Source: Patescibacteria group bacterium (lineage in GTDB: Bacteria; Patescibacteriota; Minisyncoccia; Phycocordibacterales; JAACPR01). From it: a stretch of DNA of 64,000 nucleotides. Numbering within the stretch: the stretch's first letter is position 1; every line of letters begins with the position of its first letter. The stretch lies in NCBI GenBank assembly GCA_022711495.1, contig JAKLEX010000001.1:370171-434170 (forward strand), in the 5' to 3' direction. A program made the translations under genes and the position numbers. This document shows, one piece after another, positions 5,510 to 43,689 of the stretch. The notes under the pieces were generated by a model. It saw nothing but the letters and a program-made list of their open reading frames with translations, was not told where the DNA came from and made no database searches.

Positions 5510-6243
5510 TGGAAGCGTTGGATTTTAAAATAAAAACGGAGACATTTGAAGGGCCGCTAGATTTGCTTTTGAATTTGATAGAAAAAAGAAAGCTGCTAAT
5601 CAATGATATTTCCTTAGCCAAAGTTACAAATGATTATATTGGCTACCTAAAAATCCACGGAGAAATGCCGATGGGGCAAAATTCTAATTTTATTTTGATT
5701 GCCGCAACCCTGTTGTTGATCAAGTCAAAGTCTCTTTTACCAACCCTTGAATTGTCCGATGAAGAAGAACAAAGCATCGGCGATCTGGAAAAAAGGTTAA
5801 AAATTTATAAAAGACTAAAAGAGGTTGAGCCACAAATTGCCGAGATGTTCTTTAAAAATCCAAGTTTCCCACGCCGACAGGTTTTATCTCATCAGATTGT
5901 CTTCGCGCCGACGAAACAAATTAATCTCAAGAGTCTTCAAGAAACAATTTCTGGAGTGCTTGACTCACTGCCAAAATTTGAAAAAGTCGCTAAAGCCATT
6001 GTCAACAAGGTTTTGAGTCTGGAAGAAATGATCGGGCGTTTAACAGAAAGAGTTAAAAAATCGTTGAAGTTAAGCTTCAAGGAATTCTCTGGTTATCATA
6101 AAAAAAATAAAATAAATATAATTGTCAGTTTCTTGGCCATGCTGGAACTCGTAAAAGAGGGTATAATTGAAACCACTCAAAAAGAGGGCGGGGAAGATAT
6201 TGAGATTCAAACACGCGAGTTTGACACGCCAAGCTATACTTAA
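5509..6243 (+). CDS. scpA: Segregation and condensation protein A
   Basis: N-terminus FEGPLDLLLNLIEKRKLLINDISLAKVT is typical of ScpA. Immediately followed by scpB. Confidence 0.85.
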   Translation: MEALDFKIKTETFEGPLDLLLNLIEKRKLLINDISLAKVTNDYIGYLKIHGEMPMGQNSNFILIAATLLLIKSKSLLPTLELSDEEEQSIGDLEKRLKIYKRLKEVEPQIAEMFFKNPSFPRRQVLSHQIVFAPTKQINLKSLQETISGVLDSLPKFEKVAKAIVNKVLSLEEMIGRLTERVKKSLKLSFKEFSGYHKKNKINIIVSFLAMLELVKEGIIETTQKEGGEDIEIQTREFDTPSYT

Positions 6244-6837
6244 ATGGACGACGGAACAATAGAAAAACAAATAGAGAGCATTTTATTTTGGAAAGCCGAA
6301 CCGGTGTCTTTTTCTGAGCTAGCCAAAATCTTGGGGATTTCCGCGGAAAGAATAAAAAGCGCCGCGCTGAATCTGGTTGAGACGACGCGAAGTAGGGGCA
6401 TGGTTGTCATTATGGGCAATGACGAACTTTCTCTGGCGACTTCTCCAGAAACTTCGGCGTTAATAGAAAAACTGCAAAAAGAAGAGCTGACCAAGGACTT
6501 GAGTCGCGCGGCGCTGGAAACCCTTAGCGTGATTCTATACAGAGGGCCAATGCGAAGATCAGAGATTGATTATGTCCGAGGAGTAAACTCCCAGTTTATT
6601 CTACGGATTTTATTGATCCGAGGCCTAATCGGGAAAAAAGTTGATGAAAAAGACGAACGGGCGTATATCTATTTCGCATCATCAGAAACTTTAGCGCACC
6701 TGGGAATCCAAAAAATTGAAGACTTGCCTCAGTTTGAAAAAGTAAACCAAGACGTCAATGCCTTTTTGGAAAGACAGCAGGCTCTTGATAGTCAGGAAAA
6801 CAAACAAGATAATGTTTCAGAGAATCCGGCAGAATAA
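6244..6837 (+). CDS. scpB: Segregation and condensation protein B
   Basis: Winged-helix ScpB signature (SILFWKAEPVSFSELAKILG...). ATG abuts the scpA stop. Confidence 0.85.
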   Translation: MDDGTIEKQIESILFWKAEPVSFSELAKILGISAERIKSAALNLVETTRSRGMVVIMGNDELSLATSPETSALIEKLQKEELTKDLSRAALETLSVILYRGPMRRSEIDYVRGVNSQFILRILLIRGLIGKKVDEKDERAYIYFASSETLAHLGIQKIEDLPQFEKVNQDVNAFLERQQALDSQENKQDNVSENPAE

Positions 6838-7762
6838 AGAAATATTATACTCCCTGGTATTGATCGTTGTGCCGGTCGCTATTCTTTTTTTGATAACGAT
6901 TTTTGTAAAGATCAGGCCAATCAGCATTGAGCCGGCTGAAATTATTCCAGAAACAGTTAAGCCAGCGGATATTTTCGGTAACGTGGAAATAGAGGCCCGC
7001 GCCGCCATCGTCAAAGACATCAACGCCGGAGAAATTTTATTTGGCAAAAACGAAAATCTCCCGCTGGCCTTGGCGTCGTTGACTAAAGTCCTGACCGCCC
7101 TAACCTTTGAAGTCAACGCGGCTGAAGAAATCATAAATATCACGTATGACGATTTAAAAGAGGAGGGAAACAGCTTACTTTATCCCGGTGAGCGGTTTTA
7201 TAAAAAAGACCTGATAGATTTCACCTTAATTACGTCTTCAAACGACGCTTCGGCCGCATTAGCAGCGAATACGCTATCAGGATCAACTAAAGAATTATCC
7301 AGCCCCAGAGAGGCTTTTGTCGATGAAATGAATCGTCTAGCAAAACTAATAGGTATGAAAAGCTCTAATTTCTCCAACGAGACTGGTCTGGATAAAAGTC
7401 CAACTTCCGCCGGCGCTTACGGCTCCGCTTCGGATATTGCCACACTGTTTGAATATATTTTAAAAAATTATCCGGAAATTTTAGAAGCAACCGGTAAGTC
7501 TATAACTACAATTCGGTCAGTCAATGGTATCGTTCATCAGGCCACCAATACGAACGAAATCATAGACAAACTTCCAAACGCCATCGCTTCCAAGACGGGA
7601 TTCACGGATATTGCCGGGGGAAATTTGGCCGTGGTAATAGACCCGGGGCTAAATCGACCAATAATTATTGTCGTCCTAGGTTCAACCGAAGAGGGGCGGT
7701 TTGCTGATGTTGAAAAATTAGCGCAAAAAACCGAAGAATATTTAAAATTATTAAGCGACTAG
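6812..7762 (+). CDS. D-alanyl-D-alanine carboxypeptidase (serine-type, PBP5/6-like, S11)
   Basis: Signal/TM N-terminus. SxxK motif ASLTKVLTA, SxN motif TSSND and a KTG motif (SKTGFT). The ORF track starts at 6758; the more plausible start is the internal Met at 6812. Confidence 0.75.
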   Translation: MFQRIRQNKEILYSLVLIVVPVAILFLITIFVKIRPISIEPAEIIPETVKPADIFGNVEIEARAAIVKDINAGEILFGKNENLPLALASLTKVLTALTFEVNAAEEIINITYDDLKEEGNSLLYPGERFYKKDLIDFTLITSSNDASAALAANTLSGSTKELSSPREAFVDEMNRLAKLIGMKSSNFSNETGLDKSPTSAGAYGSASDIATLFEYILKNYPEILEATGKSITTIRSVNGIVHQATNTNEIIDKLPNAIASKTGFTDIAGGNLAVVIDPGLNRPIIIVVLGSTEEGRFADVEKLAQKTEEYLKLLSD

Positions 7763-7815
7763 GCAAAAATTTCATATAGTAAATTGATTAAAATAAGTGT
7801 ATACTTTTCAACGCC

Positions 7816-8886
7816 ATGATTGTTGACACCATTAAGGTTATCTTGCCCGCGGCCCTGACTTTCTTTGTCGGGATCGCCATAACTCCGACAATTACCGATT
7901 TTTTGTATAGAAATAAGATGTGGAAGAAATCGGCCGGGAAAGTTGACACGGCTGGAGTAACCGCGCCAGTTTTCAATAAATTCCATAAAGATACTGAAGG
8001 AAAAACCCCAAGAATGGGAGGTATTGTCATCTGGCTAAGTGTCTTTATCGTTCTATCGGCGGTCTGGTTATCCTCCAGATTTCTGCCGTTTCAGATTTTT
8101 GATAAGCTAGATTTTCTAAGTAGAAATCAAACCTGGATTCCGGTGGCGGCAATGCTTCTGGGCGCGATTGTTGGATTAATTGATGATTTATTTGAAATAA
8201 AAGGGTGCGGAGGAAAAATCGGCGGAATCTCTTCAACAAAAAGACTTTTAATAGTTAGTCTAATCGCTCTCGGAGTCGCTTCTTGGTTTTATTTTAAACT
8301 TGACGTAGGAGCTATCGGATTGCCGATTATCGGAGAAATATCATTGGGTTGGCTTATAATTCCCGTTTTCATTCTCATAACCATAATGATTTACTCTGGC
8401 GGCGTCATTGACGGACTTGACGGACTGTCGGGAGGAATTTTTGCCATTATGTTTTCGGCTTACGGGATAATCGCTTTTACTTCAGGGCAAGTAAATCTGG
8501 CGGCGTTTTGCGCTTCTTTGGTCGGAGGAATCTTAGCTTTTACTTGGTTTAACATACCACCAGCGAGATTTTACATGACTGAGACCGGTTCAATGTCATT
8601 AACAATCGTATTGGCCATAGTGGCTTTTATGACAGACAATATCATTGGCGGCATCGGACTATTTGTGTTATTTATAATAGCTCTTCCATTAATAGCCACG
8701 GCCGGATCTTCTTTTATTCAAATAATGTCAAAAAGATACCGCGGCGGTAAAAAGGTCTTTTTGGCGGCCCCTCTTCACTATCATTTTGAAGCTTTGGGTT
8801 GGCCGGCCTACAAAGTGGTTATGCGTTATTGGATTTTGTCTATCATTTTCGCCAGCATCGGCATAATTATTGCTGTTTTATATTAG
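7816..8886 (+). CDS. mraY: Phospho-N-acetylmuramoyl-pentapeptide transferase
   Basis: Polytopic membrane protein with MraY-typical N-terminus and the conserved DD/HHH-region context (GLIDDL..., APLHYHFE). Confidence 0.9.
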   Translation: MIVDTIKVILPAALTFFVGIAITPTITDFLYRNKMWKKSAGKVDTAGVTAPVFNKFHKDTEGKTPRMGGIVIWLSVFIVLSAVWLSSRFLPFQIFDKLDFLSRNQTWIPVAAMLLGAIVGLIDDLFEIKGCGGKIGGISSTKRLLIVSLIALGVASWFYFKLDVGAIGLPIIGEISLGWLIIPVFILITIMIYSGGVIDGLDGLSGGIFAIMFSAYGIIAFTSGQVNLAAFCASLVGGILAFTWFNIPPARFYMTETGSMSLTIVLAIVAFMTDNIIGGIGLFVLFIIALPLIATAGSSFIQIMSKRYRGGKKVFLAAPLHYHFEALGWPAYKVVMRYWILSIIFASIGIIIAVLY

Positions 8887-8910
8887 AAAAAAGGTTGTTT
8901 TTCTGAGATA

Positions 8911-10026
8911 ATGTCTCCAGTTATGTGGAAGGAAAGCCCCGTAGACAAAGTCTTGCTCATAATCATTATCTCTCTGGTCACGGCCGGAATAGTAATTTAT
9001 TTATCTGCCACTCTTGGATTGCTGGCCGGCGACAGTCAAGAATATCTCTCAAAGATATTAAATCAATTCACTTTCGGTCTGATCAGCGGCGGAATTATTT
9101 GTTATCTGACTTCAAAAGTTCCATATAAGTTTTGGAGAAATTATTCTTTTTGGATCTTCCTGTTGTCACTCCTATTGACCGCCGCGGTTTTCCTACCAAA
9201 AATCGGATTAGAGGTAGCCGGCGCAAAAAGGTGGTTAATTGCCGGACCGCTGACGTTCCAGCCCGGTGAACTTTTAAAAATAGCTTATGTTATTTATGTC
9301 GCTGCCTGGCTGTCAGCCGCCAAAGAAAAAATAAAGTCCTTTCGTCACGGGACTTTACCTTTTTTAATAATTTCCGCGCTGGCCTTTGGAATTTTGCTTT
9401 TGCAGCCAGATAACGACACCATGTTGGTAATGCTCGCGGCTGGCGGAGCGATGTATTTGGTCGCCGGCGCAAATTTGAAACACGTCATCCTTGTTCTTAT
9501 TTGCGGCGCGCTTATGACAACGGCGATAGTTTTCAATAACGATTATGTCCGAGCGCGATTGGCAACCTTTATAAATCCGGCAGGAAATCCTCTAACCTCG
9601 GGATACCAACTTCAGCAATCGCTTATAGCCATCGGTTCGGGCGGATTGGCCGGACGCGGATTCGGCAAAAGCATACAGAAGTTTGATTTTCTACCGGAGC
9701 CAACCGGTGATTCTATTTTTGCCGTCATCGGAGAAGAGTTCGGTTTCGTCGGATGCGTAACGTTAGTTTTGTTATTTATCGCTCTATTAACCATAAGCGT
9801 AAAAATAAGTCTTTCATCCAAAGAAACCTTCGGTGGACTCCTTATCCTGGGACTTGGTATACTGATAGTGAGCCAGTCTTTTATAAATATGGCTTCAATG
9901 TTGGGTATTTTCCCGCTAGCCGGCTTACCGCTTTTATTTATCAGCCACGGCGGAACAGCTTTGCTTTTCACTCTGTTTGCCAGCGGCATAATGCTTAACA
10001 TTTCGCGGTTTAAACAAACAAATTAG
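8911..10026 (+). CDS. ftsW: FtsW/RodA/SpoVE family peptidoglycan glycosyltransferase (SEDS)
   Basis: About 10 TM helices with SEDS motifs (WLIAGPLTFQPGELLKIA; GIFPLAGLPLLFISHGGTALL). Lies between mraY and murG as in the dcw cluster. Confidence 0.85.
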   Translation: MSPVMWKESPVDKVLLIIIISLVTAGIVIYLSATLGLLAGDSQEYLSKILNQFTFGLISGGIICYLTSKVPYKFWRNYSFWIFLLSLLLTAAVFLPKIGLEVAGAKRWLIAGPLTFQPGELLKIAYVIYVAAWLSAAKEKIKSFRHGTLPFLIISALAFGILLLQPDNDTMLVMLAAGGAMYLVAGANLKHVILVLICGALMTTAIVFNNDYVRARLATFINPAGNPLTSGYQLQQSLIAIGSGGLAGRGFGKSIQKFDFLPEPTGDSIFAVIGEEFGFVGCVTLVLLFIALLTISVKISLSSKETFGGLLILGLGILIVSQSFINMASMLGIFPLAGLPLLFISHGGTALLFTLFASGIMLNISRFKQTN

Positions 10027-10029
10027 CTT

Positions 10030-11151
10030 ATGAAAATCGTATTCACAGGAGGAGTAACGGGCGGACATTTCTATCCGATAATCGCCGTGGCCGAAGAAAT
10101 CCGCGAGATTTGTAAACAGAAAAAACTTATAGAGCCGACTTTATATTTTTTATCACCCGCGCCCTATAACGAAAAAATTCTTTTTGACAATAAAATTATT
10201 TACAAAAAAGTTCCAGCAGGGAAGATGCGGCTTTATCCATCAATTCTGAACTTCCTGGACATATTCGTCACCGGCATCGGTTTAATAAAAGCTCTCTGGA
10301 CAATGTTCTGGATTTATCCGGACGTCGTTTTCAGCAAGGGCGGCGGCGGAAGTTTCCCGATTGTCTGGGCGTCAAATATTCTGAAAATTCCCGTGATCGT
10401 TCACGAATCCGACAGCGCGCCAGGCCGGACTAACGTCTGGGCGGCCAAGCGAGCAAAAAAAATCGCCGTTTCCTATCCCGAAGCCGCGCAATTTTTTCAA
10501 AAAGACAAAGTCGCTTGGACCGGAAATCCAATAAGAAAAAATTTGAAGGTGGCGGTCACGGAGGGAGCAAAAGAATATCTCGATCTGGAGACCAGCGTGC
10601 CGACAATCCTGATTTTGGGTGGATCGCAAGGAGCTAAAGTTATCAATGAAGTAATCACCGACGCGCTACCAGAACTTATAAAAGAATTTCAAATAATTCA
10701 TCAAGTCGGTAAAAATTCTTTCTCTGAAATAAGTGAATTATCTAAAATCATTTTACAGAATTCTCAATACGCGCACCGTTACAAACTTTTTCCATATCTA
10801 GATGACTTGGCTTTAAAAATGTCTGCCGGAGCCGCTGACCTAATTATCAGTCGGGCCGGATCTACGATCTTTGAAATCGCCAATTGGCATAAGCCGAGTA
10901 TCTTGATCCCCATCACCGAATCGCATGATGACCACCAGCGAAAAAATGCCTATATTTACGCCCGAACCGGCGCTGGCACGGTTATAGAAGAAAGCAATCT
11001 GTCAGACAGCATCTTAATAACTGAAATTAAGAGAATTTTAGACAATAAAGACATCAAGGACTCCATGATTGCCGCCGCCAGTGATTTTGCCAAACCAGAG
11101 GCGGCTTTAACAATCGCCAAAGAACTGTTGGAACTCGGTTTAAATCATTAA
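10030..11151 (+). CDS. murG: UDP-N-acetylglucosamine--N-acetylmuramyl-(pentapeptide) pyrophosphoryl-undecaprenol N-acetylglucosamine transferase
   Basis: N-terminal GGTGGHFYP motif and overall GT28 architecture. dcw-cluster context. Confidence 0.9.
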   Translation: MKIVFTGGVTGGHFYPIIAVAEEIREICKQKKLIEPTLYFLSPAPYNEKILFDNKIIYKKVPAGKMRLYPSILNFLDIFVTGIGLIKALWTMFWIYPDVVFSKGGGGSFPIVWASNILKIPVIVHESDSAPGRTNVWAAKRAKKIAVSYPEAAQFFQKDKVAWTGNPIRKNLKVAVTEGAKEYLDLETSVPTILILGGSQGAKVINEVITDALPELIKEFQIIHQVGKNSFSEISELSKIILQNSQYAHRYKLFPYLDDLALKMSAGAADLIISRAGSTIFEIANWHKPSILIPITESHDDHQRKNAYIYARTGAGTVIEESNLSDSILITEIKRILDNKDIKDSMIAAASDFAKPEAALTIAKELLELGLNH

Positions 11152-11154
11152 AAT

Positions 11155-12519
11155 ATGTTTAATTTTTTTAAAAGAAAAGTCGTTACCAGATTTCCACCAA
11201 GTCCAACTGGCTGGTTTCATATCGGCAACGCTCGAACGGCTTTATTTAATTATCTCTTCACCAAACAAAACGGCGGCGTCGTAAAATTCAGATTGGAAGA
11301 TACTGACAAAGAGAGATCCAAACCAGAATACGCCCAAGACATTCTAGAGGGCCTTAAATGGTTGGGGATAGAAATGAATTATGACAATCCCTATCGCCAA
11401 TCGGAACATGGCTCAACCTATCAAAAATACATAGAGGCGATGTTAAAAAACGGCACCGCTTATGTCTCAAAAGAAAACGCCACGGAAATGGGCCAAAGAT
11501 CTGAAGTCATCAGGCTAAAAAATCCGGGTAAGAAAATCAAATACAAAGATTTGATTCGCGGTGATATCGAAGTTGACACAACTGAACTCGGAGATTTTAT
11601 CATCGCCAAAAGCATAACTGAGCCGTTGTATCATTTGGCAGTGGTAGTTGATGATTATGAAATGGGAGTAACTCATATTATCCGCGGAGAGGACGGAATC
11701 TATAACACCCCGCGTCAGATTCTCATCCAAGAGGCCATCGGCGCGAAAAGACCATTGTACGCTCACATGCCATTTATTCTGAACGAAGACCGTTCCAAAT
11801 TGTCTAAAAGAAATCAGGGGGAAATTGTTTCCTTAAAATATTATCGGGAAAAGGGTTATCTTCCGAGCGCCCTGGTGAATTATTTGGCGATGTGCGGCTG
11901 GAATCCCGGAACCGAGCGTGAAATCTTTTCAATGGACGATTTGATCAAGAATTTTGACATCTTAAAAGTTCAAAAATCTGGAGCAATTTTCAATACGGAG
12001 AAATTAAATTGGTTCAACCGAGAGCATCTAAAATTGTTGCCGGAATCCGAATTTATTTCAGAAATAGTTAAGAGAACAAAGAAATTCAATCCCGACAAAA
12101 ATCTGATTGAAAGGTTACGCCCGATCCTCCTAGAAAGAATAAGCAAGTTTAGCGACATAGACGCTTTGATTGAAAATCAAGAAATAGATTACTTTTTCGG
12201 CGCCCCAACCTACGAGGTAAAAAAAATAATTTGGAAAGAAACAGACATCAGTACGACAATCGCCCATCTAAATAAAGCCCTTGAAAAGGTTCAGAACCTA
12301 AAAGAATATCCGACAATTGACGAAATTAAAAACTCTATCTGGGAATACGCGACGGAGAAGGGGAGAGGGGCAGTTTTATGGCCACTTAGATATTCTCTAT
12401 CCGGCAAAGAAAAATCCCCAGATCCGTTCACTTTAATCGCCGTCTTGGGAAAAACAGAGTCTATTAAACGAATTAAAGAAGCCGTGAAGAAAATAAATGA
12501 TCTGCCGAATAAAAAGTAA
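11155..12519 (+). CDS. gltX: Glutamyl-tRNA synthetase
   Basis: Class I motifs: HIGN in place of HIGH (RFPPSPTGWFHIGNARTALFNY) and KLSKR (SKLSKRNQG). Confidence 0.9.
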   Translation: MFNFFKRKVVTRFPPSPTGWFHIGNARTALFNYLFTKQNGGVVKFRLEDTDKERSKPEYAQDILEGLKWLGIEMNYDNPYRQSEHGSTYQKYIEAMLKNGTAYVSKENATEMGQRSEVIRLKNPGKKIKYKDLIRGDIEVDTTELGDFIIAKSITEPLYHLAVVVDDYEMGVTHIIRGEDGIYNTPRQILIQEAIGAKRPLYAHMPFILNEDRSKLSKRNQGEIVSLKYYREKGYLPSALVNYLAMCGWNPGTEREIFSMDDLIKNFDILKVQKSGAIFNTEKLNWFNREHLKLLPESEFISEIVKRTKKFNPDKNLIERLRPILLERISKFSDIDALIENQEIDYFFGAPTYEVKKIIWKETDISTTIAHLNKALEKVQNLKEYPTIDEIKNSIWEYATEKGRGAVLWPLRYSLSGKEKSPDPFTLIAVLGKTESIKRIKEAVKKINDLPNKK

Positions 12520-16382: not shown

Positions 16383-16655
16383 ATGTCACACGTTAAAGCC
16401 GCCGGTTCAACCAAAAACTTACGAGACTCCAATCCCAAATATCTTGGCGTCAAACTTTATGATGGTGAAAAAGCCAATATTGGCAATATAATCGTTCGCC
16501 AGAGAGGAACCCGCGTTCTGCCTGGAAAAAATGTCAGAATGGGCAAAGATCATACTATTTACGCGATGAAAAACGGCAAAGTGAAGTTCTCACAAAAGAG
16601 ACAAACTCGTTACGATAATAAAATTGTCTCCAAGAGGGTTGCTAGTGTCGTTTAA
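16383..16655 (+). CDS. rpmA: 50S ribosomal protein L27
   Basis: [24 protein letters not shown]...QRGT... is the canonical L27 signature. Confidence 0.9.
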
Positions 16656-22834: not shown

Positions 22835-25800
22835 TCAATACCCCACATTAATCGTAGTTTTGAACGTCTGAACAACTGGACTGCCGACATAATTAGGCCC
22901 AGTGTGTTCCAGTCTAAGAATAATTTCAACTTGTCCCCTGTCGCTGCCAACCGGAGTTAGATTTCTAAAACTGGCGTATTGGACTTGAACATCTCTGGAG
23001 GTCAAACGTCTAGGTTCACCGTTCCCTTCCTGAATATACAAAACCCCACCTTCAACATAGAAAACGGTCTCAACGTCATCTTTAACAAAGGTAATCGTAG
23101 ATATACCCACCTGGGACAAAACGGTTGAGCCCCAGACAGACAAAGGATCTCTCAAAAAAGTAGTTTCGTGTTCATCTGCCAAAACAACGCTAGAAGTTCC
23201 GTCTAGTCCAAGTTTTATTGTCTTTCCGACAGAATCATATTCTCCCATTTCTTCCTGAAGAGAATATTCCGGATATACGCAAAGAACTTGGCCTTCTGGA
23301 ATCTCAACGGAATCTGAAAATTCAGCTGTACCACTAGCGTCATCAAGATCAACGGCCACGCCAAAAGGACTATCTTCGTCAAAACTTTCAACTTCAGCGG
23401 AGCTTTCTGGGCAAACAGACGAAGATGTTCCTGTCTCTAATACATAGTTCAGTTGAACATCATCAATATATTCTGGTTCTAGAGTTCCGAATTGTGTGAG
23501 AGTTATTTCTTCAATTGTGTCAGTTCCAGATTCTTTATAAAAGACAAAGGCACCATCAAGAGCAACATCAGCGTCCCCCGGATCAATTGCCGTCACGTGA
23601 CGACCGACGGTGGTGGCAATTAGGTTGCCTGTAGAAATTGAAGTTATGTCCCAGTTTATGTTATTGCCACTATCAAGACCGGTCGTCTCAATTACCAAGA
23701 CGTTAATGTTATTAGAATCCTGAACATCAACATAAGTTATGGCTCGAACACCTTGTGGGTCAATACTCCATTGTGTATCGGGAGTTGAAGATCTTAACAT
23801 CAGTAAATTAGATTCGTCAGAGCCAGACATGGTGGTGGTGCCAGCAACAGTGTATGTGCTTCCAGCGGTAAATGTCGCGGTCGTTGGTGTAGTTGTGGCT
23901 ATAATATTTAGATTTTGATAGGACCACGCCGGATTGATTGTCAGGGTATCCGAACCGCTGTATTCAACAGTAGAGCCGGTGTTCATGGTAACTGAACCAG
24001 TGACAGTTTCGGCACCGGTGAGACGTAGAGTGCCGCCGGATTGTGAAAAGCCACCATTGAACGTCGCGTTGACGCCGTTTAAGTCAACAACGCCAGTAGA
24101 AAGATTTAGGCCGTAACCGGCGAGGGCCTTTAGCCATGTGACCGTCCCGGAACCAGTCAGAGTTATGGTGGCCGATTCATTATTAAGGGTGGTCTTTGGC
24201 ATGTAGGCTCCAGCGGCAATATTTACACTTTGAGCTTCACCTCCATCAATGAGGAAACCAATTTTATAATAAGTGGTATTTACCCCATCAAATGTTGAGT
24301 TGACGACAACCGGACCTTCGGCGTTGAAAGTCGCGTCACCGGCACTAATTTTATAAAATCTCCCATTAGTTAGGGTCGTCGTGGCATTAACAATAAAGGG
24401 ATAGTTGTTCGCTAATGTTAATTGGACGTTGTTATCTTTATTAAACTCAAATTCATAAAACTCCACCGTGTCATCAGTGGTGAATGCCGCATTGGTGGCC
24501 CCGCTGATTATGACTTTCCCGTTGTTATGATCAAAAAAACCATCATCAGAAACAATGAGGCTGCCAGTGAGAGTCAGCAGATCTGATGGCGCTAAAAATG
24601 TCCCGCTTGAAATAGTGAGACTATTTAACGATTCATTGGGTGCGGTGGAATTTGTGAAAGAGCCGCCGGTAATTTCAAATGTTCCTCCGGCCCTGATCGT
24701 ACCGGAACCGCCAATAAAGGTCCCACCACTCTGCGAAAATCCGCCTGTAAAGACGGCATTTACACCATTTAGGTCAACCGTTCCATTTTGAATATATAGA
24801 CCGTAGCCTGTTGCTCCTGGCCATGTAGTAGTTCCGGAACCAGTTAGGGTTATGGTGGTTAACTCATTATTAAGCGTAGTTCTTGGCATATAGGCTCCAG
24901 CAGGCAAATTAAAACTCTGATCTACTTCCCCATCAATTAGAAAATTAACTCTATAATAAGATGTATTTACCCCATCAAATGTTGAGTTGACGACAACCGG
25001 ACCTTCGGCGTTGAAAGTCGCGTCACCGGCACTAATTTTATAAAATCTCCCATTAGTTAGGGTCGTCGTGGCATTAACAATAAAGGGATAGTTGTTCGCT
25101 AATGTTAATTGGACGTTGTTATCTTTATTAAACTCAAATTCATAAAACTCCACCGTGTCATCAGTGGTGAATGCCGCATTGGTGGCCCCGCTGATTATGA
25201 CTTTCCCGTTGTTATGATCAAAAAAACCATCATCAGAAACAATGAGGCTGCCAGTGAGAGTCAGCAGATCTGATGGCGCTAAAAATGTCCCGCTTGAAAT
25301 AGTGAGACTATTTAACGATTCATTGGGTGCGGTGGAATTTGTGAAAGAGCCGCCGGTAATTTCAAATGTTCCTCCGGCCCTGATCGTACCGGAACCGCCA
25401 ATAAAGGTCCCACCACTCTGCGAAAATCCGCCTGTAAAGACGGCATTTACACCATTTAGGTCAACCGTTCCATTTTGAATATATAGACCGTAGCCTGTTG
25501 CTCCTGGCCATGTAGTAGTTCCGGAACCAGTTAGGGTTATGGTGGTTAACTCATTATTAAGCGTAGTTCTTGGCATATAGGCTCCAGCAGGCAAATTAAA
25601 ACTCTGATCTACTTCCCCATCAATGAGGAAGTTAACGGCCGGAAAGTTTGATCTAACCCCATCAAATGTTGAGTTGACTACTATGGGACCCTCGGCCTTA
25701 ACAGTAGACATTGATCCGCTACTGTGAAATCGACCATCGGTTAATGTGGTTGTTGCTTTAACAGTGAAGAGATCTCCAGTGGCCAACACTAAATACGCCC

Positions 25801-26272
25801 CATTGGTCTTACTAAACTCAAACTCATAGAAATCTACACCGGCAGGTGGGGCATCAAAAGTCGCGCTACCACCGCTGGCGATAATTTTACCGCTATTATG
25901 GTCGAAAGCATCTTCTTCAACAATTGTAAAATTTCCGGAAATAGTCAGGGTATTCCCTGTCCCCGGAGCCGTGAACGTCCCTGTATATCCGGCCTGCATT
26001 GTCAGAGAGGCAATAGACCAGCTACCAGTAGAAGTGGCATCATTGGTACAAGACGAGGTGAAATAAACGGCATCGCTAGCACCCGGAACAGATGCGCCAC
26101 CGCTAACGCCGCAATCATTTGCCGCTGTTGACCAGTTAGCCGAATCCAAGACATCACCACCATCAGAGCCAACCCAGTAACGACTGGCCGCCTGACCAGT
26201 TTTGGCAAAAGCAAAAAGAAAAAGCGCGACCACTAGAAACTTAAATAGTTTTCTAAAGTTCATTATAAACAA
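22835..26272 (-). CDS. Large secreted repeat-containing surface protein (1145 aa; Thr/Gly/Asn-rich, likely beta-solenoid/adhesin-like)
   Basis: N-terminal signal peptide (MFIMNFRKLFKFLVVALFLFAFAKTGQAAS). About 3.5 copies of a ~229-aa repeat, two of them identical. Composition is typical of beta-helix adhesins. No LPXTG motif was seen. Confidence 0.7.
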   Translation of the reverse strand: MFIMNFRKLFKFLVVALFLFAFAKTGQAASRYWVGSDGGDVLDSANWSTAANDCGVSGGASVPGASDAVYFTSSCTNDATSTGSWSIASLTMQAGYTGTFTAPGTGNTLTISGNFTIVEEDAFDHNSGKIIASGGSATFDAPPAGVDFYEFEFSKTNGAYLVLATGDLFTVKATTTLTDGRFHSSGSMSTVKAEGPIVVNSTFDGVRSNFPAVNFLIDGEVDQSFNLPAGAYMPRTTLNNELTTITLTGSGTTTWPGATGYGLYIQNGTVDLNGVNAVFTGGFSQSGGTFIGGSGTIRAGGTFEITGGSFTNSTAPNESLNSLTISSGTFLAPSDLLTLTGSLIVSDDGFFDHNNGKVIISGATNAAFTTDDTVEFYEFEFNKDNNVQLTLANNYPFIVNATTTLTNGRFYKISAGDATFNAEGPVVVNSTFDGVNTSYYRVNFLIDGEVDQSFNLPAGAYMPRTTLNNELTTITLTGSGTTTWPGATGYGLYIQNGTVDLNGVNAVFTGGFSQSGGTFIGGSGTIRAGGTFEITGGSFTNSTAPNESLNSLTISSGTFLAPSDLLTLTGSLIVSDDGFFDHNNGKVIISGATNAAFTTDDTVEFYEFEFNKDNNVQLTLANNYPFIVNATTTLTNGRFYKISAGDATFNAEGPVVVNSTFDGVNTTYYKIGFLIDGGEAQSVNIAAGAYMPKTTLNNESATITLTGSGTVTWLKALAGYGLNLSTGVVDLNGVNATFNGGFSQSGGTLRLTGAETVTGSVTMNTGSTVEYSGSDTLTINPAWSYQNLNIIATTTPTTATFTAGSTYTVAGTTTMSGSDESNLLMLRSSTPDTQWSIDPQGVRAITYVDVQDSNNINVLVIETTGLDSGNNINWDITSISTGNLIATTVGRHVTAIDPGDADVALDGAFVFYKESGTDTIEEITLTQFGTLEPEYIDDVQLNYVLETGTSSSVCPESSAEVESFDEDSPFGVAVDLDDASGTAEFSDSVEIPEGQVLCVYPEYSLQEEMGEYDSVGKTIKLGLDGTSSVVLADEHETTFLRDPLSVWGSTVLSQVGISTITFVKDDVETVFYVEGGVLYIQEGNGEPRRLTSRDVQVQYASFRNLTPVGSDRGQVEIILRLEHTGPNYVGSPVVQTFKTTINVGY
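24278..25624. repeat. Perfect tandem duplication inside the surface-protein gene: two ~660 bp copies with 687 bp period (229 codons)
   Basis: Nucleotide stretches starting near 24283 and 24970 are identical for about 660 bp. The two identical antisense ORF-track entries 24555..24791 and 25242..25478 are offset by exactly 687 nt. Boundaries are approximate. Confidence 0.85.
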
Positions 26273-26333
26273 ATTATACCAAAATATTGGCTCGAAAAAA
26301 CCGGCATTTCGCCGGTTCTGGGGATTGGATTTA

Positions 26334-26747
26334 TTAGGAGATCTTTAAGATTTTAACCTTAGTGAAGGGCTGACGATGGCCATTTTTCTTAAAATATCGA
26401 CTTTTGGCTTTGTAGTGAATGACGGTGATTTTTTTGTCTCTACCGTTTTCAAGAATTTCAGCGGAGACGCTGTTTTTCAGGATTGGCGCACCGATCTCAA
26501 CTTTATCGCCGTCAGCGGTTAATAAAACTTCATCAAAAGAAACTTTGCCGGCTTTAACCAACTTGTCAGAGATTTTTTCAACTTTGATTATATCTCCCTC
26601 ACGAACAAAATATTGTTTAGCGCCGGTTTGAATAACGGCCGATTTATTAGGCGACGCCTCCATTGCAGATGGAGATTTTTTCGCTACCTTGACTGATTTA
26701 TTGGCTTTTGCGGTTGTTTGAGGTTTTGTTTCCATGTAGACAGACAT
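26334..26747 (-). CDS. rplU: 50S ribosomal protein L21 (with Lys-rich N-terminal extension, or a later start)
   Basis: Core IQTGAKQYFVREGDIIKVEKI...ILKNSVSAEILENGRDKKITVIHYKAKSRYFKKNGHRQPFTKVKI matches the L21 signature. The first ~30 aa are basic and low-complexity. Confidence 0.8.
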   Translation of the reverse strand: MSVYMETKPQTTAKANKSVKVAKKSPSAMEASPNKSAVIQTGAKQYFVREGDIIKVEKISDKLVKAGKVSFDEVLLTADGDKVEIGAPILKNSVSAEILENGRDKKITVIHYKAKSRYFKKNGHRQPFTKVKILKIS

Positions 26748-31477: not shown

Positions 31478-32104
31478 TTAATCCATTGCCTCCGCTTCAA
31501 CTATCCACCTCTCTTCCCTAGCACCAAAGGTATTACAAGTTGAAATGGTTAATTTTTTAATATCGCTGTTAAATTTGATCAGCGCTTCATTCTCGTCAAC
31601 TAGACTGACTTTCGTGACTTTATAAAAATAATTGCTGCCGTTGGCAATCAGTTGGATTACATCACCTTCATCTAATTTATATAAATTATTAAAAACTTTG
31701 AGAGCAGAGCCCTGCGCGTTTAGATACAAATCAGCACTATGGCCAAAAATAAAGATATTGCCGTTTTCCACCGAACCGGAGCCAGGATAATGCACCGGGC
31801 CTTGGCTTAAATGAACATCAAGCTCCGCGACATTAAAAGTATCCGGCTGCTGAATTTTAGCGCCAATCCCCAATTTGCTGATAATAATTTCATCCGGACG
31901 AGTGTAAGTTCCAGTAAACCCGCCTTGAGAATAGTCAAACGGCTGACCGATTATTCCCGGAGCTTTATGAAAAAAATAATCGTATAAGCTTAAGCTTTTG
32001 GGCGCCAAGCCGGAGAGAGAAAAAACAACAAGAGAGACAACAAAGACAACGAGAAATATTTTTAGAAAAACCAGCTGTTTGTGATGGTTTGTGTTTTCTA
32101 TCAT
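31478..32104 (-). CDS. Sortase family transpeptidase
   Basis: N-terminal TM anchor. Conserved His (IFGHS), the catalytic Cys motif LTISTC and a downstream Arg (EERW). Confidence 0.7.
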   Translation of the reverse strand: MIENTNHHKQLVFLKIFLVVFVVSLVVFSLSGLAPKSLSLYDYFFHKAPGIIGQPFDYSQGGFTGTYTRPDEIIISKLGIGAKIQQPDTFNVAELDVHLSQGPVHYPGSGSVENGNIFIFGHSADLYLNAQGSALKVFNNLYKLDEGDVIQLIANGSNYFYKVTKVSLVDENEALIKFNSDIKKLTISTCNTFGAREERWIVEAEAMD

Positions 32105-39538: not shown

Positions 39539-39610
39539 GGCGTGGTGGCGAAGTGGAAACGCTGCGGTCTGCAAAACCGCCATGCGCGGGTTCGATTCCC
39601 GCCCACGCCT
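39539..39610 (+). tRNA. tRNA-Cys (anticodon GCA)
   Basis: Acceptor GGCGTGG/CCACGCC, anticodon loop CTGCAAA, T arm GCGGGTTCGATTCCCGC. Begins 3 nt after the rbfA stop. Confidence 0.8.
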
Positions 39611-39661
39611 CAATAATGTTTAAACTCCCGCGCGGGAGCCGGAACATTAGAAAAAAAATAA

Positions 39662-39743
39662 GCTCGGGTGGCGGAATTGGTATACGCGCACGACTTAAAA
39701 TCGTGTCTCGCAAGGGATGCGGGTTCGACCCCCGCCCCGAGCA
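39662..39743 (+). tRNA. tRNA-Leu (anticodon TAA), type II
   Basis: Acceptor GCTCGGG/CCCGAGC, anticodon stem CACGA/TCGTG with loop CTTAAAA, long variable arm, T arm GCGGGTTCGACCCCCGC. Confidence 0.8.
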
Positions 39744-39781
39744 CAATAAAGACGAAATTATTGAGCCGTTTTTATTGAAAC

Positions 39782-39854
39782 CCGCCCATAGCTCAGTTGG
39801 TAGAGCAGTCGCCTCTTAAGCGATTGGTCGTAGGTTCGAGTCCTACTGGGCGGA
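39782..39854 (+). tRNA. tRNA-Lys (anticodon CTT)
   Basis: D arm TAGCTCAGTTGGTAGAGC, anticodon loop CTCTTAA, T arm GTAGGTTCGAGTCCTAC. Acceptor CCGCCCA/TGGGCGG gives a C1-G72 pair, so the 5' end may be off by one. Confidence 0.7.
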
Positions 39855-39919: not shown

Positions 39920-41209
39920 TTAGATGGAATACCTAACAACTACAATACCCGAGCCACCATTTCCGCCATTTTGTGTATACCCACCTCCTCCTCCGCCACC
40001 GCCAGTATTTGACTCACCGTTTGAAACTTCGGCTCCATCATACTGGCCACCCTGGCCACCGCCGCCCAAACCGCCATCACCATATTCAACCGTATTTGAA
40101 TCTGTACCACCGCCTCCGCCACCGCCATAATAAGTGGCTACACCGGTAATGCTAGAGGAGATTCCATCTCCACCGTCTCCTCCACCGGCATCATATAGAG
40201 CAGAGTCGCCTATTTCTCCAGCGCCTCCTCCCCCTCCGCCAGAGCCTATGCCAGGGGCGGAGTTACCACTTCCGCCATCATTTCCTTGCGCCGGAGCAAC
40301 TTCTGGAGTATTACCCAACCCACCACTGCCGCTTGAATGAGCGCCCCCGCCACCAGAACCGCCATTGCCACCATCACTATCGCCATAGCCACCACCATAC
40401 CCTCCACCCGCGGCACTGGTTGTGTCAAAAAGACTTGCACTACCGGCATTTCCTCTGGCATCTTCAACTATCGCGCCAGCTCCTCCATCACCAATTGTTA
40501 CGGAATAGTCACCGGCATCTAGAGATTCACCATCTAATTCTATGACGCCGCCACCGCCGCCACCGCCAGCAGCATGTCTTCCTCCCCCGCCACCGCCACC
40601 AACAACCAAGATATCAGCAGTTAGAGTGGTAAGAGCGGTAAATGTATCATCGGAAGTAAATGTGTGGACACAGTACGAGCCGTCTTCGGTAACAGTTCCG
40701 CCAGTAGCATAATCGGCACAGGCATCCTCCCCTCCACCCTCTTCTTCAACCAATGAAGTTGAAGTTCCAATGACAACGCCGCCTAATCCTTGTTCTTTTG
40801 AACCTGGAGCAATCAGAGCCAGCTTATTGCCAGTCTGAAGAGCTATTTCGTAATTACCACCATTTGGATTTTCTGGTAGAGCTGAAAGATAAGTTGGAAC
40901 TAGCTCAGCTGAAAGATCAACGCAATCTGGTTCTACTGTATCACCACCGGTATCGCAGATTTCTTGGAGACTGCCATCTAATCCATCCGGCCAGTCTAGT
41001 TCGTCTATATAGTATTGTTGGACAGCTTTATGAATAGCATTTAAATCACTGGCTCTTTGAGCGTTTCTGGCTTGAGCTAGTTGTCTAGAAGGATTGATGG
41101 CCACGATAACGATCGCTGCCAAAATGGCGATAATGGCGATGACCAGAAGCATTTCCAGGAGAGTGAAACCTTTTTGAGTATTTCGTTTCGATAATTGAAA
41201 GAAAGACAT
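39920..41209 (-). CDS. Type IV pilin-like protein (class III signal/N-methylation motif) with very long glycine-rich C-terminal domain
   Basis: N-terminus MSFFQLSKRNTQKGFTLLEMLLVIAIIAILAAIVIVAI is the prepilin cleavage/methylation motif plus hydrophobic alpha1 helix. A ~120-aa pilin-like head is followed by ~270 aa dominated by poly-Gly tracts (GGGGGGG…), ending …GGSGIVVVRYSI. Confidence 0.7.
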   Translation of the reverse strand: MSFFQLSKRNTQKGFTLLEMLLVIAIIAILAAIVIVAINPSRQLAQARNAQRASDLNAIHKAVQQYYIDELDWPDGLDGSLQEICDTGGDTVEPDCVDLSAELVPTYLSALPENPNGGNYEIALQTGNKLALIAPGSKEQGLGGVVIGTSTSLVEEEGGGEDACADYATGGTVTEDGSYCVHTFTSDDTFTALTTLTADILVVGGGGGGGRHAAGGGGGGGVIELDGESLDAGDYSVTIGDGGAGAIVEDARGNAGSASLFDTTSAAGGGYGGGYGDSDGGNGGSGGGGAHSSGSGGLGNTPEVAPAQGNDGGSGNSAPGIGSGGGGGGAGEIGDSALYDAGGGDGGDGISSSITGVATYYGGGGGGGTDSNTVEYGDGGLGGGGQGGQYDGAEVSNGESNTGGGGGGGGYTQNGGNGGSGIVVVRYSI

Positions 41210-41361
41210 ATAGATAACTTATTGTTATGAACCGACTTATAAAGTTTGATGTAGATATTATACTATGGGGAGAAAAAAAATAAAGTAAGTATTGTGAGTC
41301 TATTTTTGGGTTTGAATTTAGCGGTTGTTCGTGTAATATTAATAACAGGTAAATTTGTAAA

Positions 41362-41444
41362 GCGCGGGTGGCGGAATTGGCAGACGCACTTGCCTTAGGA
41401 GCAAGCGAGGTTCCCTCGTGGAGGTTCAAGTCCTCTCCCGCGCA
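41362..41444 (+). tRNA. tRNA-Leu (anticodon TAG), type II
   Basis: Acceptor GCGCGGG/CCCGCGC, anticodon stem CTTGC/GCAAG with loop CTTAGGA, variable arm CGAGGTTCCCTCGTG, T arm GGAGGTTCAAGTCCTCT. Confidence 0.8.
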
Positions 41445-41520
41445 CAAATAAACAAAGAACGTCAGCTCAAGGGCGAGCCGGCGTTTTTTGTTTTTGTGGT
41501 ATTTCTATCTGGTGCCGTAG

Positions 41521-41551
41521 TTGACAAACCGACATTATTCGTGATATAATT
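41521..41551 (+). promoter_or_regulatory. Consensus sigma70-type promoter (TTGACA, 18-nt spacer, TATAAT) upstream of the GC-rich cassette; RBS AAGGAGAAGG precedes the ATG at 41616
   Basis: Sequence gTTGACAaaccgacattattcgtgaTATAATtc read directly. Perfect -35 and -10 hexamers. Confidence 0.5.
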
Positions 41552-41615
41552 CATGCAGATTCAGAGACCCGAGCTTTAAAAGCTCAAAACAACAGTACAT
41601 TGAAAGGAGAAGGTT

Positions 41616-42707
41616 ATGAACGTCATTGGAGCTTGGATGATTGCGGGATGCATTGGAATTCTGGCGATTTTTTCGGCCCTCGTGGGCGTCGTCAAGGTTA
41701 AGGAAAATAAGCCAGTGGAACAACTGTCGCGCTGGACCTGGTTTGTCCTGTCGCGGTTGTTTGTTGGTGCCCTCGCCTATGCGGCGACCATCAATATTCT
41801 GGCAACTTTTTCCGATTCAGATCCAAACTGGGCTTGGTATTTCGGTGGGATCTTGGTCGGCCTAAGCGTTTTCGCCCTGATGATCGAATTGACGCACAAG
41901 TCTGCGCTCTTTCGATTGGCAGGTAATAAATTCGCGCTGGCCACCGATATCTTCTTTGGACGAAGGGCAACTTTCATCCGTGAAGATATGGATTGTGCCA
42001 TTCGGACTTACCGGATCTATCTCGGTGGTCTGAATGCCAAGTTCGACTGGGAGATCGTTGAAATCGTCGACGAATTCAATCGTGATGTGATCGACACGAT
42101 CTCCTCAACGGTAGAATTCGAAGACTCGCCGGGGCTACTCTCTGGTAAGTATACGCTAAGACCCGATCCGGAGAGATTGCAGTACTTCGCTGCGACGAAT
42201 GTCGATACCGCAAAAAGAGATGCTCTCCTAAAGGAGGCTTTTGGCGGCTACGTAAGAATGTACTTGAGTGATTTTCTCAAGACAAAAAAAATCGACGGGG
42301 CCATGGCCACTAAGGGCACCCTGTTCGACGAACTCCCTGAATCTGTCAAAACAGAGCTCCGACGCCAGGAAGAAAAGTACGGGGTCAAGTTAAACACCCG
42401 TATCATCGACAACATTGACTATCCGCCAGAACTGGCGAAGGTCAATGAGCAAATATCGGTGATGGCGCGGATACGAGAGATGGTTAACTTCCAGCTAGAG
42501 AGCTGGGGTAAGACCAAGGAGCAGATCGAGGGTAAGGCTGATCGGGGAAATGTCACGCCCGAAGAGCGGAAAGAAGCGGAAAGACTGGTGTTGGCGATTA
42601 CCGAACAGGTTCCGGAAAGGACACTTCGGCACATCATCGATGGGCGTCTCGACAGCAAAACGGCTGGCAAGATTATCCTGGGCATCAATAGCGGAAAGGA
42701 GGAATGA
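41616..42707 (+). CDS. Polytopic membrane protein with C-terminal SPFH/band-7-like region (tentative); GC-rich, probably horizontally acquired
   Basis: Three N-terminal hydrophobic helices. The C-terminal segment …GVKLNTRIIDNIDYPPELAKVNEQISVMARIREMV resembles the SPFH core (…GI.V..V.I.DI..P.EV..AM…). Codon composition is visibly GC-richer than the flanking genome. Confidence 0.45.
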   Translation: MNVIGAWMIAGCIGILAIFSALVGVVKVKENKPVEQLSRWTWFVLSRLFVGALAYAATINILATFSDSDPNWAWYFGGILVGLSVFALMIELTHKSALFRLAGNKFALATDIFFGRRATFIREDMDCAIRTYRIYLGGLNAKFDWEIVEIVDEFNRDVIDTISSTVEFEDSPGLLSGKYTLRPDPERLQYFAATNVDTAKRDALLKEAFGGYVRMYLSDFLKTKKIDGAMATKGTLFDELPESVKTELRRQEEKYGVKLNTRIIDNIDYPPELAKVNEQISVMARIREMVNFQLESWGKTKEQIEGKADRGNVTPEERKEAERLVLAITEQVPERTLRHIIDGRLDSKTAGKIILGINSGKEE

Positions 42708-43279
42708 TTATGGTCGAGCCTACCATTCGTAGCGTTGATAAGCGGACGATCCGTCTTTTCGTCTGGGCACCCCTCGGAGTGATCTTGGCGATAGTCGTCC
42801 TGATCACCGGCTATGTCCATCGGAGAGAAATCTCCGAGTGGATAACCGAGCTTGCTCGGGAAAAAACGGAGACGCGGCAACCTGTGGCAACACAGCCAGT
42901 CGCGCCTCAAAACCAGACGTCAGTCCCCCACCTGCGAGTCTACAACCTCGTACCGGGCGGAGACCACGTTTCGGTTCTATTCCGTGATTCCGAGAACGAT
43001 GCCCTCGCCTGGTACGGCGATGGCGGTTGTTACCAGGTTCGATACATTAAGCAAGACGGAATGACCTGGAACGCACCGGGCTGTATGCCGGGTGGTTGGA
43101 TCTGGGCAATCCCAGGAATCCATTGGCAAACGGTTTACCAATGGATTGGGGAACCGCTGGCCATACAGTTCAGGGTTCCGGCAACCAGGATAGAAAAGTC
43201 CTGGGGACGCAGGGTTGAGAAACCCTGCGCGCCAGTGACGCTTCACGTATCGCTGAAACCGATACGAGATCCGTCCTGA
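42704..43279 (+). CDS. Hypothetical membrane-anchored protein (1 TM plus Trp/Gly/Cys-rich ~140-aa domain), translationally coupled to the upstream gene
   Basis: ATGA overlap with the preceding ORF. TM helix FVWAPLGVILAIVVLITGYV. No recognisable family. GC-rich like its partner. Confidence 0.45.
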   Translation: MIMVEPTIRSVDKRTIRLFVWAPLGVILAIVVLITGYVHRREISEWITELAREKTETRQPVATQPVAPQNQTSVPHLRVYNLVPGGDHVSVLFRDSENDALAWYGDGGCYQVRYIKQDGMTWNAPGCMPGGWIWAIPGIHWQTVYQWIGEPLAIQFRVPATRIEKSWGRRVEKPCAPVTLHVSLKPIRDPS

Positions 43280-43302
43280 CAACAAAACGACAAGTAGTAA
43301 CC

Positions 43303-43338
43303 CAAAAGGCTCCGAGAGAGATTCCCGGAGCCTTTTTT
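43303..43338. terminator. Rho-independent terminator (bidirectional hairpin between the convergent cassette and pilin-array operons)
   Basis: aaaaGGCTCCGagagagattcCCGGAGCCtttttt: GC stem flanked by an A-tract and a T-tract. Confidence 0.7.
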
Positions 43339-43411
43339 ATTTTGACCCTACTTCAATCTGTGGAGAGTGAGTTATGAGACTATCAAATCTCCCGCCCTAA
43401 TTTTATCCGTC

Positions 43412-43657
43412 TTATCCGTAAATTGTATCCAGGGCCAATTTGATTATGCCGAAAACCGATACCATGATCAGCATTCCGATGAGCCCCCAGATTATGTGGC
43501 GGCGACCAGTTTCTCGAGCTTCTGGATTGCTAGCGCCCTTGATATAGTTGAAAATTCCCCACAAGAAAACAACCAGGGCTACGGCAAAAAGCAACCTTAT
43601 CAAGGGGTTAACAATAACAGAGGCGATCTTTGACAGAAAACTGTCTACTGACGACAT
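43412..43657 (-). CDS. VirB2/TrbC-like (T4SS-pilin-like) small two-helix membrane protein, paralog 1 of 6
   Basis: 81 aa. Hydrophobic helix, then …FLWGIFNYIKGASNPEARETGRRHIIWGLIGMLIMVSVFG…, the two-TM hairpin with charged loop shared by all six paralogs. Confidence 0.6.
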   Translation of the reverse strand: MSSVDSFLSKIASVIVNPLIRLLFAVALVVFLWGIFNYIKGASNPEARETGRRHIIWGLIGMLIMVSVFGIIKLALDTIYG

Positions 43658-43689
43658 AGAAGTATTTTAAGACTATTCCCAATTCTACT

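Follow-up and report, generated by a model that had tools for sequence, protein, structure and literature searches.

A 64,000-nucleotide (nt) stretch of contig JAKLEX010000001.1 from an uncultured, ultra-small Patescibacteria group bacterium (assembly GCA_022711495.1, positions 370,171 to 434,170 of the forward strand; hereafter the window, numbered from its first letter) contains a minus-strand gene for a large, predicted secreted repeat protein, which is deposited at NCBI as a 'hypothetical protein' of Candidatus Paceibacterota (HRY30962.1 / HRZ34573.1). Translation of this gene probably starts with the ATG at 26263, the start chosen in the NCBI, JGI, and ENA records, for a product of 1142 amino acids (aa), while an alternative TTG at 26272 would give 1145 aa; residue numbers are hereafter counted from the ATG unless the 1145-aa numbering is named. 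Self-comparison revealed one exact run of 662 nt at an offset of 687 nt, and this direct repeat has sharp borders and is in frame (phase 0), with aa 214-434 being the same as aa 443-663 (217-437 and 446-666 in the 1145-aa numbering). Units A and B, to which the two perfect copies belong, are 98% identical with 221 residues shared, and the protein as a whole holds ~3.3 units, namely a partial unit (aa 20/83-213), two full 229-aa units, and another partial unit (aa 672-787/815) (Table 1).

A preliminary description, made from the sequence alone, had reported adjacent units identical over about 660 bp at a 687-bp period, older copies that have diverged, and two identical opposite-strand 78-mers offset by 687 nt. 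These observations were confirmed, the perfect identity extending over exactly 662 nt, the flanking partial units being 44-48% and 56-60% identical to the full ones, and the 78-mers being shadows of the repeat. The same description had given the protein 1145 aa and about 3.5 copies; the 229-aa unit stood, while length and unit count were revised to the values above. Tandem Repeats Finder was silent on the repeat gene, as its longest period of 500 is below 687.

Table 1. Features of the repeat gene and its immediate surroundings in the window (aa numbered from the ATG)
Feature	Position	Strand	Details
Extended -10-like box TGGTATAAT (TGnTATAAT)	26273-26281	-	Ends 9 nt before the ATG; consensus match only
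Terminator-like hairpin after rplU	26295-26319	-	9-bp GC-rich stem, GAAAU loop, U run; dG -18.2 kcal/mol, z = -2.8
Coding sequence of the 1142-aa secreted repeat protein	22835-26263	-	ATG at 26263, stop codon 22835-22837
Sec-type signal peptide (predicted)	26189-26263	-	aa 1-25, MNFRKLFKFLVVALFLFAFAKTGQA followed by AS; read from the sequence; without lipobox or prepilin motif
N-terminal module (RYWVG...ANWS...)	26018-26188	-	aa 26-82; common to many other large extracellular proteins
Old diverged partial unit	25625-26017	-	aa 83-213; 44-48% identical to the C-terminal half of full units
Perfect repeat copy 1 (gene order)	24963-25624	-	662 nt, aa 214-434; most of unit A (24938-25624, aa 214-442)
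Junction between the perfect copies	24938-24962	-	25 nt, aa 435-442, SYYRVNFL
Perfect repeat copy 2	24276-24937	-	662 nt, aa 443-663; most of unit B (24251-24937, aa 443-671)
Old diverged partial unit	23903-24250	-	aa 672-787; 56-60% identical to the N-terminal half of full units
Cap module (...LMLRSSTPDTQWSIDPQGVRAITYVDVQDSNN...GNNINWD)	23639-23902	-	aa 788-875; without Pfam model
C-terminal module, two beta-sandwich domains	22838-23638	-	aa 876-1142; invariant Cys951, Cys995
Identical 78-aa open reading frames opposite the repeat	24555-24791 and 25242-25478	+	By-products of the duplicated coding sequence, not genes

Between the two perfect copies, the junction differed at 8 of its 25 positions (3 synonymous and 5 non-synonymous differences) from the paralogous 25 nt after copy 2, and even more from the 25 nt preceding copy 1, while none of the 662 positions inside the copies was mismatched (Fisher p = 9e-13). 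Random mutation after a simple duplication therefore cannot explain the pattern, and the simplest reading of these sequences is that a recent gene conversion between two older, diverged units homogenized 662 nt. By this reading, the two central units would already have been separate and diverged when homologous recombination within the gene (a gene conversion, or a double unequal exchange to the same effect) replaced 662 nt of one of them by the sequence of the other, and only the 25-nt junction would have stayed diverged. The resulting 662-bp perfect direct repeat would be a substrate for RecA-type unequal exchange, in which one crossover between the copies would delete exactly 687 nt and produce a 913-aa form. 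Through such exchange, cells could differ in the length of the repeat-bearing central part of the protein (hereafter the passenger).

Further, counterparts of the repeat gene were found at the same locus in two diverged relatives, with the gene order rmuC-rplU-(LamG gene)-P0052-recR-dnaB in one (L007, JGI 3300076802) and rmuC-rplU-P0056 in the other (L008, ENA). The orthologues P0052 and P0056 align with the window protein over nearly its whole length and match it in unit count. The flanking proteins of the window and L007 are 67-88% identical, while the repeat protein is only 37% identical, and by these identities it is evolving much faster than its surroundings. The units within one protein were 98% identical in the window protein, 88/77% in P0052, 74/64/62% in P0055, and 53% in P0056, as compared with 26-46% between proteins. 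Units being far more alike within than between proteins, concerted evolution is indicated. Consistently, the L007 orthologue, which comes from an unrelated sample, has perfect tracts of 590 and 173 nt at an offset of 684 nt (adjacent units) and of 296 nt (non-adjacent units) with diverged patches between them, and near-identical large units are present in other homologues too.

In L007, one additional gene lies between rplU and the orthologue (8001-11552). Its product P0057 (661 aa, 5951-7936) shares the signal peptide, N-terminal module, and C-terminal module and has LamG as its passenger. Over their final 156 aa, the products of the two neighboring genes are identical, and the final 471 nt of the genes differ at 7 sites, all of them synonymous, with an abrupt border, a pattern that indicates gene conversion between P0057 and the orthologue. 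Since the units evolve in concert, the L007 tracts are perfect, and the L007 neighbors share their 3′ 471 nt, recombination-driven homogenization is a habit of this locus and family.

Across the public assemblies, the two-copy form (1142 aa) was found in JGI 3300010429, ENA ERZ795054, and two NCBI records, and the one-copy form (913 aa, P0001) in ENA ERZ27257455 and one more contig, while the contig of JGI 3300025902 stops 107 nt into the repeat, with its sole mismatch 5 nt from the contig end. Exact look-ups assign the proteins of the window to a metagenome-assembled genome ('MAG TPA: Candidatus Paceibacterota bacterium'), and over 23.4 kb the window matches one ENA and one JGI contig with 100% identity. 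The gene has the same offset in two ENA contigs of 95,342 bp and 96,029 bp, whose lengths are exactly one 687-nt period apart, and once one such period was removed, the one- and two-copy loci were identical at all 22,742 positions. A first blastn comparison had suggested '46 SNPs' (single-nucleotide polymorphisms) between one- and two-copy contigs, an artefact of alignment overlap in the repeat that disappeared after the period removal. Given that the junction was assembled, at least two units are present there. Sequence comparison also ruled out that the junction is a crossover chimera of the flanks of the one-copy form, as unequal crossing-over in an ancestor with one unit would have left, so the two-unit state appears ancestral and the 913-aa form derived. 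A real deletion in the cells and a collapse by the assembler are equally possible explanations of the one-copy form, since every other base of the assemblies is identical. The preliminary description had warned of assembly collapse at this repeat, and the hazard is demonstrated here: the public records of one population hold the gene in a 913-aa, a 1142-aa, and a truncated version, which matters for the comparison of metagenome-assembled genomes and for counts of 'strain' differences.

Two other origins of the perfect repeat have to be weighed against gene conversion. If a single 687-nt unit had just been duplicated in tandem, through slippage or unequal crossing-over and without any earlier two-unit state, the in-frame 687-nt period and the 662 perfect positions would follow, and the 14 nt TTCCTCATTGATGG, shared by the sequences on either side of the repeat, could have mediated such an event. 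This origin predicts, however, a junction equal to the sequence after copy 2 or to that before copy 1, from which the observed one differs at the 8 and more positions given above, and the same unit number is already present in the orthologues P0052 and P0056, so a fresh duplication is improbable. Of the 'very recent expansion or ongoing gene conversion' proposed earlier, the recent identity thus holds, and gene conversion accounts for the contrast between copies and junction better than a fresh expansion. An assembly artefact would mean that the true locus has another copy number or two slightly diverged units, with one unit lost by collapse (the 913-aa form) or with near-identical paths merged and one sequence written out twice, so that the identity looks perfect. 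In its favor, the assemblies of a single population fall into three kinds, with a product of 1142 aa, a product of 913 aa, or a contig cut off 107 nt inside the repeat, and a difference of 687 nt only, over 22.7 kb, suggests the same or sister read sets processed by different programs; moreover, k-mer coverage is ~7.5x and the 662-nt repeat exceeds short-read length. Nevertheless, a 25-nt junction cannot be invented by an assembler and implies two units or more, the two-copy form is identical in the records of JGI, ENA (SPAdes-style name), and NCBI, and a contig that breaks off 107 nt into the repeat is to be expected from a real branch at the repeat border. The orthologue from the unrelated sample has similar perfect tracts interrupted by diverged patches, and bubble-merging needs units that were nearly identical beforehand. 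Overall, an artefact is considered unlikely, and gene conversion between two diverged units is retained as the more likely origin of the perfect repeat.

The protein itself is built as a cassette, in which a signal peptide and N-terminal module are followed by the super-repeat passenger, the cap module, and the C-terminal module. By eye, the signal peptide has a basic n-region, a hydrophobic core, and a GQA/AS site, with the same layout in the homologues, and residues 1-23 are disordered in the structure model, with a predicted local distance difference test score (pLDDT) < 50; secretion through a Sec-type signal peptide is thus predicted. Pfam gave no match to PF07963 (N_methyl, class III signal peptide), and the N-terminus is Sec-type by prediction. 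The mature protein is ~117 kDa with an isoelectric point (pI) of 4.05, and is rich in Thr (13.8%), Gly (11.6%), and Ser, with 4 Cys. A pattern scan found no LPXTG-like motif or hydrophobic tail near the C-terminus, where the protein ends in ...QTFKTTINVGY. A sortase gene lies 5 kb from the repeat gene (31478-32104, -), and a crude scan of the open reading frames (ORFs) of the window for an LPXTG-like motif plus hydrophobic tail gave no convincing sortase substrate. A partner sortase had been suggested as worth looking for; judged by its sequence, the repeat protein is not a classical sortase substrate. Searches of Pfam and NCBIfam up to E 1 detected no beta-barrel translocator, two-partner secretion (TPS) domain, or PATR in it, no SLH, CWB2, or other known S-layer domain was found with Pfam/NCBIfam, and no Por_Secre_tail sorting domain with Pfam. 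Likewise, the phase variation that had been suspected found no basis, as no homopolymer of ≥8 and no short-unit repeat occurs in or upstream of the gene.

An exhaustive HMMER search retrieved 1,337 representative clusters at E <= 1e-3, among them 567 at E <= 1e-10. In contrast to this, no meaningful Pfam, NCBIfam, or PDB sequence match was obtained for the repeat protein; FliW, DUF5013, and FwdC (Pfam/NCBIfam) fell below the cut-off and were rejected as spurious, and the PDB yielded no sequence match to the protein or to the C-terminal profile, even at E = 10 for the latter. The homologue matches are modular, falling on the N-terminal module, super-repeat region, cap module, or C-terminal module. 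The common plan of the homologues is a signal peptide, then 'RYW/TWxGG...NWS', then repeated units of 140-260 aa, and repeat units were detected in 187 of the 199 proteins examined. Matches of the N-terminal-module homologues are confined to query aa 3-110 (e.g., P0006, P0088, and P0094), while the cap-module match region covers ~aa 725-875 and recurs up to 23 times in giant homologues.

The C-terminal module lies <=15 residues from the C-terminus in every homologue that carries it, and Cys86 and Cys130 of its alignment A2, which correspond to Cys951 and Cys995, are invariant. It is attached to LamG passengers in P0071, P0080, and P0057, and P0124 consists of a signal peptide and the C-terminal module alone. 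At positions 1-206 of L007, a pilin-type protein (N_methyl motif) is fused to a LamG domain, so in that lineage LamG occurs on pilin-like proteins as well as on carriers of the C-terminal module. A profile search with the C-terminal module yielded 14 unnamed short proteins, while a single-sequence search with the C-terminal 267 aa matched nothing, not even its own cluster, which is treated as a tool anomaly rather than as absence. Some homologues end in type IX secretion system (T9SS), SLH, or DUF2341 domains, or contain PATR, TPS, or LamG: Por_Secre_tail is present in the distant homologues P0011, P0020, P0046, P0047, and P0049, SLH in the distant homologue P0022, and PATR or TPS domains in the cap-module homologues P0014 and P0021. 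These extra domains (T9SS, SLH, TPS, PATR, and LamG) are all extracellular, which supports a surface location of the repeat protein. A GTDB genome scan returned only two distant Treponema matches, both to the cap module, and did not recover the source genome itself; metagenome scans gave no match with the C-terminal alignment and one distant cap-module match with the full protein, and no further strains.

AlphaFold modeled the full-length protein as all-beta, with ~24 short strands per unit (pLDDT 77.9; predicted template-modeling score, pTM, 0.45), and the C-terminal module as two beta-sandwich domains (pLDDT 84.7). On these models, the passenger of ~229-aa super-repeats is probably elongated and beta-solenoid-like. 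In a viral library, the best fold matches were uncharacterized Caudovirales proteins and 'parallel beta-helix repeat' models, with E down to 2e-9, TM <=0.27, and very large root-mean-square deviation (rmsd). Low-TM Foldseek matches of the full and C-terminal models to sialidase, Fab, integrin, and pilin were treated as generic beta-sandwich noise.

With the gene on the minus strand, rplU (26334-26747, -) is located upstream of it, not downstream as previously described, and rmuC precedes rplU, while recR (+) converges on its 3′ end. Nor is the neighborhood an odd one, as had been thought: the order of rmuC, rplU, and the repeat gene is kept in the two diverged relatives, and a terminator-like hairpin and a TGnTATAAT box separate rplU from the repeat gene within an intergenic region of only 70 nt. 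Because the hairpin with its U run and the -10-like box lie between rplU and the ATG, the repeat gene looks like its own transcription unit. At the other end, recR (end at 22831) and the stop codon of the repeat gene are convergent and 3 nt apart, with no terminator space on either side. The rplU product has 137 aa, about 30 extra N-terminal residues compared with the 115-116 aa in the two relatives, and its start differs among gene callers (133 or 137 aa); rpmA (L27), the usual partner of rplU, is not adjacent and is found ~10 kb away on the opposite strand (16383-16655, +). Elsewhere in the window, 39920-41209 (-) encodes a 429-aa type IV pilin-like protein (N_methyl + Gly_rich_2), in a stretch (40000-44000) with a G+C content of 0.48-0.49 vs. 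0.40-0.43 elsewhere. tRNA genes are located nearby at 39539-39854 and 41362-41444, and the adjacent ORFs 41616-42707 and 42704-43279 had no Pfam match.

Several known surface-protein systems resemble the repeat protein in part. Gram-positive repeat surface proteins are represented by alpha C/Rib of group B Streptococcus, SasG/Aap, Esp, and Bap, in which repeat number changes by homologous recombination; the likeness lies in the predicted signal peptide, the long in-frame, nucleotide-identical repeats, the concerted units, and the fast divergence. However, the Gram-positive proteins carry LPXTG and are attached by sortase, while the window protein has neither this motif nor a hydrophobic tail, and their units are of 80-130 aa (Ig-like, Rib, and G5), while the window unit is of 229 aa, lacks a Pfam match, and is predicted to be multi-rung-beta-like. 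Their repeat number is documented to vary among isolates, and that of the window protein among assemblies only. With the autotransporter/PATR, FHA/HMW1 (TPS), and chlamydial Pmp proteins, the window protein shares a long, Gly/Thr/Asn-rich passenger of short beta strands, and the likeness to beta-helical adhesins extends to the PATR or TPS domains of the cap-module homologues P0014 and P0021 and to the weak viral parallel beta-helix matches. Unlike these beta-helical adhesins of diderms, the window protein has no beta-barrel translocator, TPS, or PATR, and no solved beta-helix was retrieved for it by Foldseek. Bacteria of the candidate phyla radiation (CPR) are generally thought to lack an outer membrane.

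The Mycoplasma Vsa/Vlp proteins and a Gracilibacterium protein are alike in coming from small-genome, host-dependent organisms, in their perfect repeats, and in the length variation to be expected. The hypervariable repeat surface gene of Gracilibacterium, another member of the CPR, has 9-nt units, and its repeat breaks or confuses short-read assembly (PMC6851277). The repeats of Vsa/Vlp (tens of nt) and Gracilibacterium are short and vary by slippage, whereas a unit of 687 nt would need homologous recombination, and unlike Vsa/Vlp-type surface proteins, the window protein is not a lipoprotein.

Taken together, the best-supported statement is that the repeat protein is secreted, surface-exposed, rapidly diverging, and beta-rich, with a passenger whose length and sequence are shaped by intragenic recombination. 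We infer for the C-terminal module that it serves to hold the protein at the envelope or to assemble it there, and by analogy with the domain partners of the family, adhesion to a host or substrate can reasonably be inferred. An S-layer-like role is about as good a fit as adhesion, in view of the composition, the conserved C-terminal module, and the single conserved locus. In such a role, the protein would be the major envelope protein of the lineage and not an adhesin, with the C-terminal module binding the wall and the repeats forming the exposed layer. Its mass, low pI, Thr/Gly/Ser-rich composition, and few Cys agree with this, as do the predicted signal peptide, the one conserved end, and the fast evolution, all of which are also features of S-layer proteins. 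Further, a conserved housekeeping locus holds it as a single positional orthologue, which diverges much faster than its neighbors, a strong -10-like box of its own lies shortly after rplU, and a signal peptide plus C-terminal module alone exists in P0124. In Lactobacillus-type S-layer proteins, a conserved C-terminal module is combined with a variable remainder, an arrangement that the window protein resembles. On the other hand, the protein differs from known S-layer proteins in that Pfam and NCBIfam gave no known S-layer domain, the L007 relative carries two such genes side by side, and the composition features are unspecific; we regard an S-layer-like role as a serious, yet somewhat unlikely, possibility.

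A phage-derived tail-fiber or tailspike gene in a prophage was also considered, as the best fold matches in the viral library were the Caudovirales proteins and 'parallel beta-helix repeat' models, and phage tail-fiber chains were among the weak PDB matches. The TM-scores and rmsd of the viral matches are poor, however, the protein has a predicted Sec signal peptide, and there is no G+C anomaly beyond that of a Gly/Thr-rich coding sequence. Moreover, the flanks are housekeeping genes (recR, dnaB, cysS, rplU, rmuC, and valS) in an order conserved in three lineages, and on account of this synteny the prophage origin was rejected as extremely improbable.

It is thus fairly probable that the gene encodes a secreted, all-beta surface protein whose units were recently homogenized by intragenic recombination, so that cells may differ in passenger length. 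Several points weigh against this view. Both the perfect identity and the copy number depend on metagenome assemblies from short reads, one of which has only ~7.5x k-mer coverage, and the true copy number could exceed 2. Apart from copy number, the DNA of the differing assemblies is identical and offers no independent strain marker. Foldseek gave no convincing match in the PDB (TM <=0.23 for the full length and <=0.35 for the C-terminal module), and the beta-solenoid label was drawn from the strand pattern and weak matches to viral beta-helix and tail-fiber models. Finally, no recognized anchoring signal (LPXTG, SLH, T9SS C-terminal domain, or lipobox) was found in the repeat protein, and its surface location and adhesive or envelope role are both predictions.

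Cells of the CPR (Patescibacteria) are thought to live attached to other microbes, and their surface proteins, except pili, are almost wholly uncharacterized. The repeat gene is a concrete candidate for such a protein, being fast-evolving, secreted by prediction, placed at a conserved locus, and part of a large family, and this family of >1,300 clusters has no description in domain databases. Concerted evolution of long surface-protein units is well known in other bacteria, and here it occurs in an undescribed family of a poorly known phylum. As a more speculative and rather doubtful extension, rmuC-rplU-X-recR might be the principal surface-display locus of the Paceibacterota, with a fixed frame for export and attachment (signal peptide and N-terminal module at one end, the undescribed C-terminal module at the other), exchangeable passengers (beta-solenoid super-repeats in the window, LamG in the neighboring paralogue of a relative), and frequent conversion and unequal exchange, within these genes and between them, tuning passenger length and sequence. 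If true, CPR bacteria would have a system for surface variation that is driven by recombination and uses a new anchoring module.

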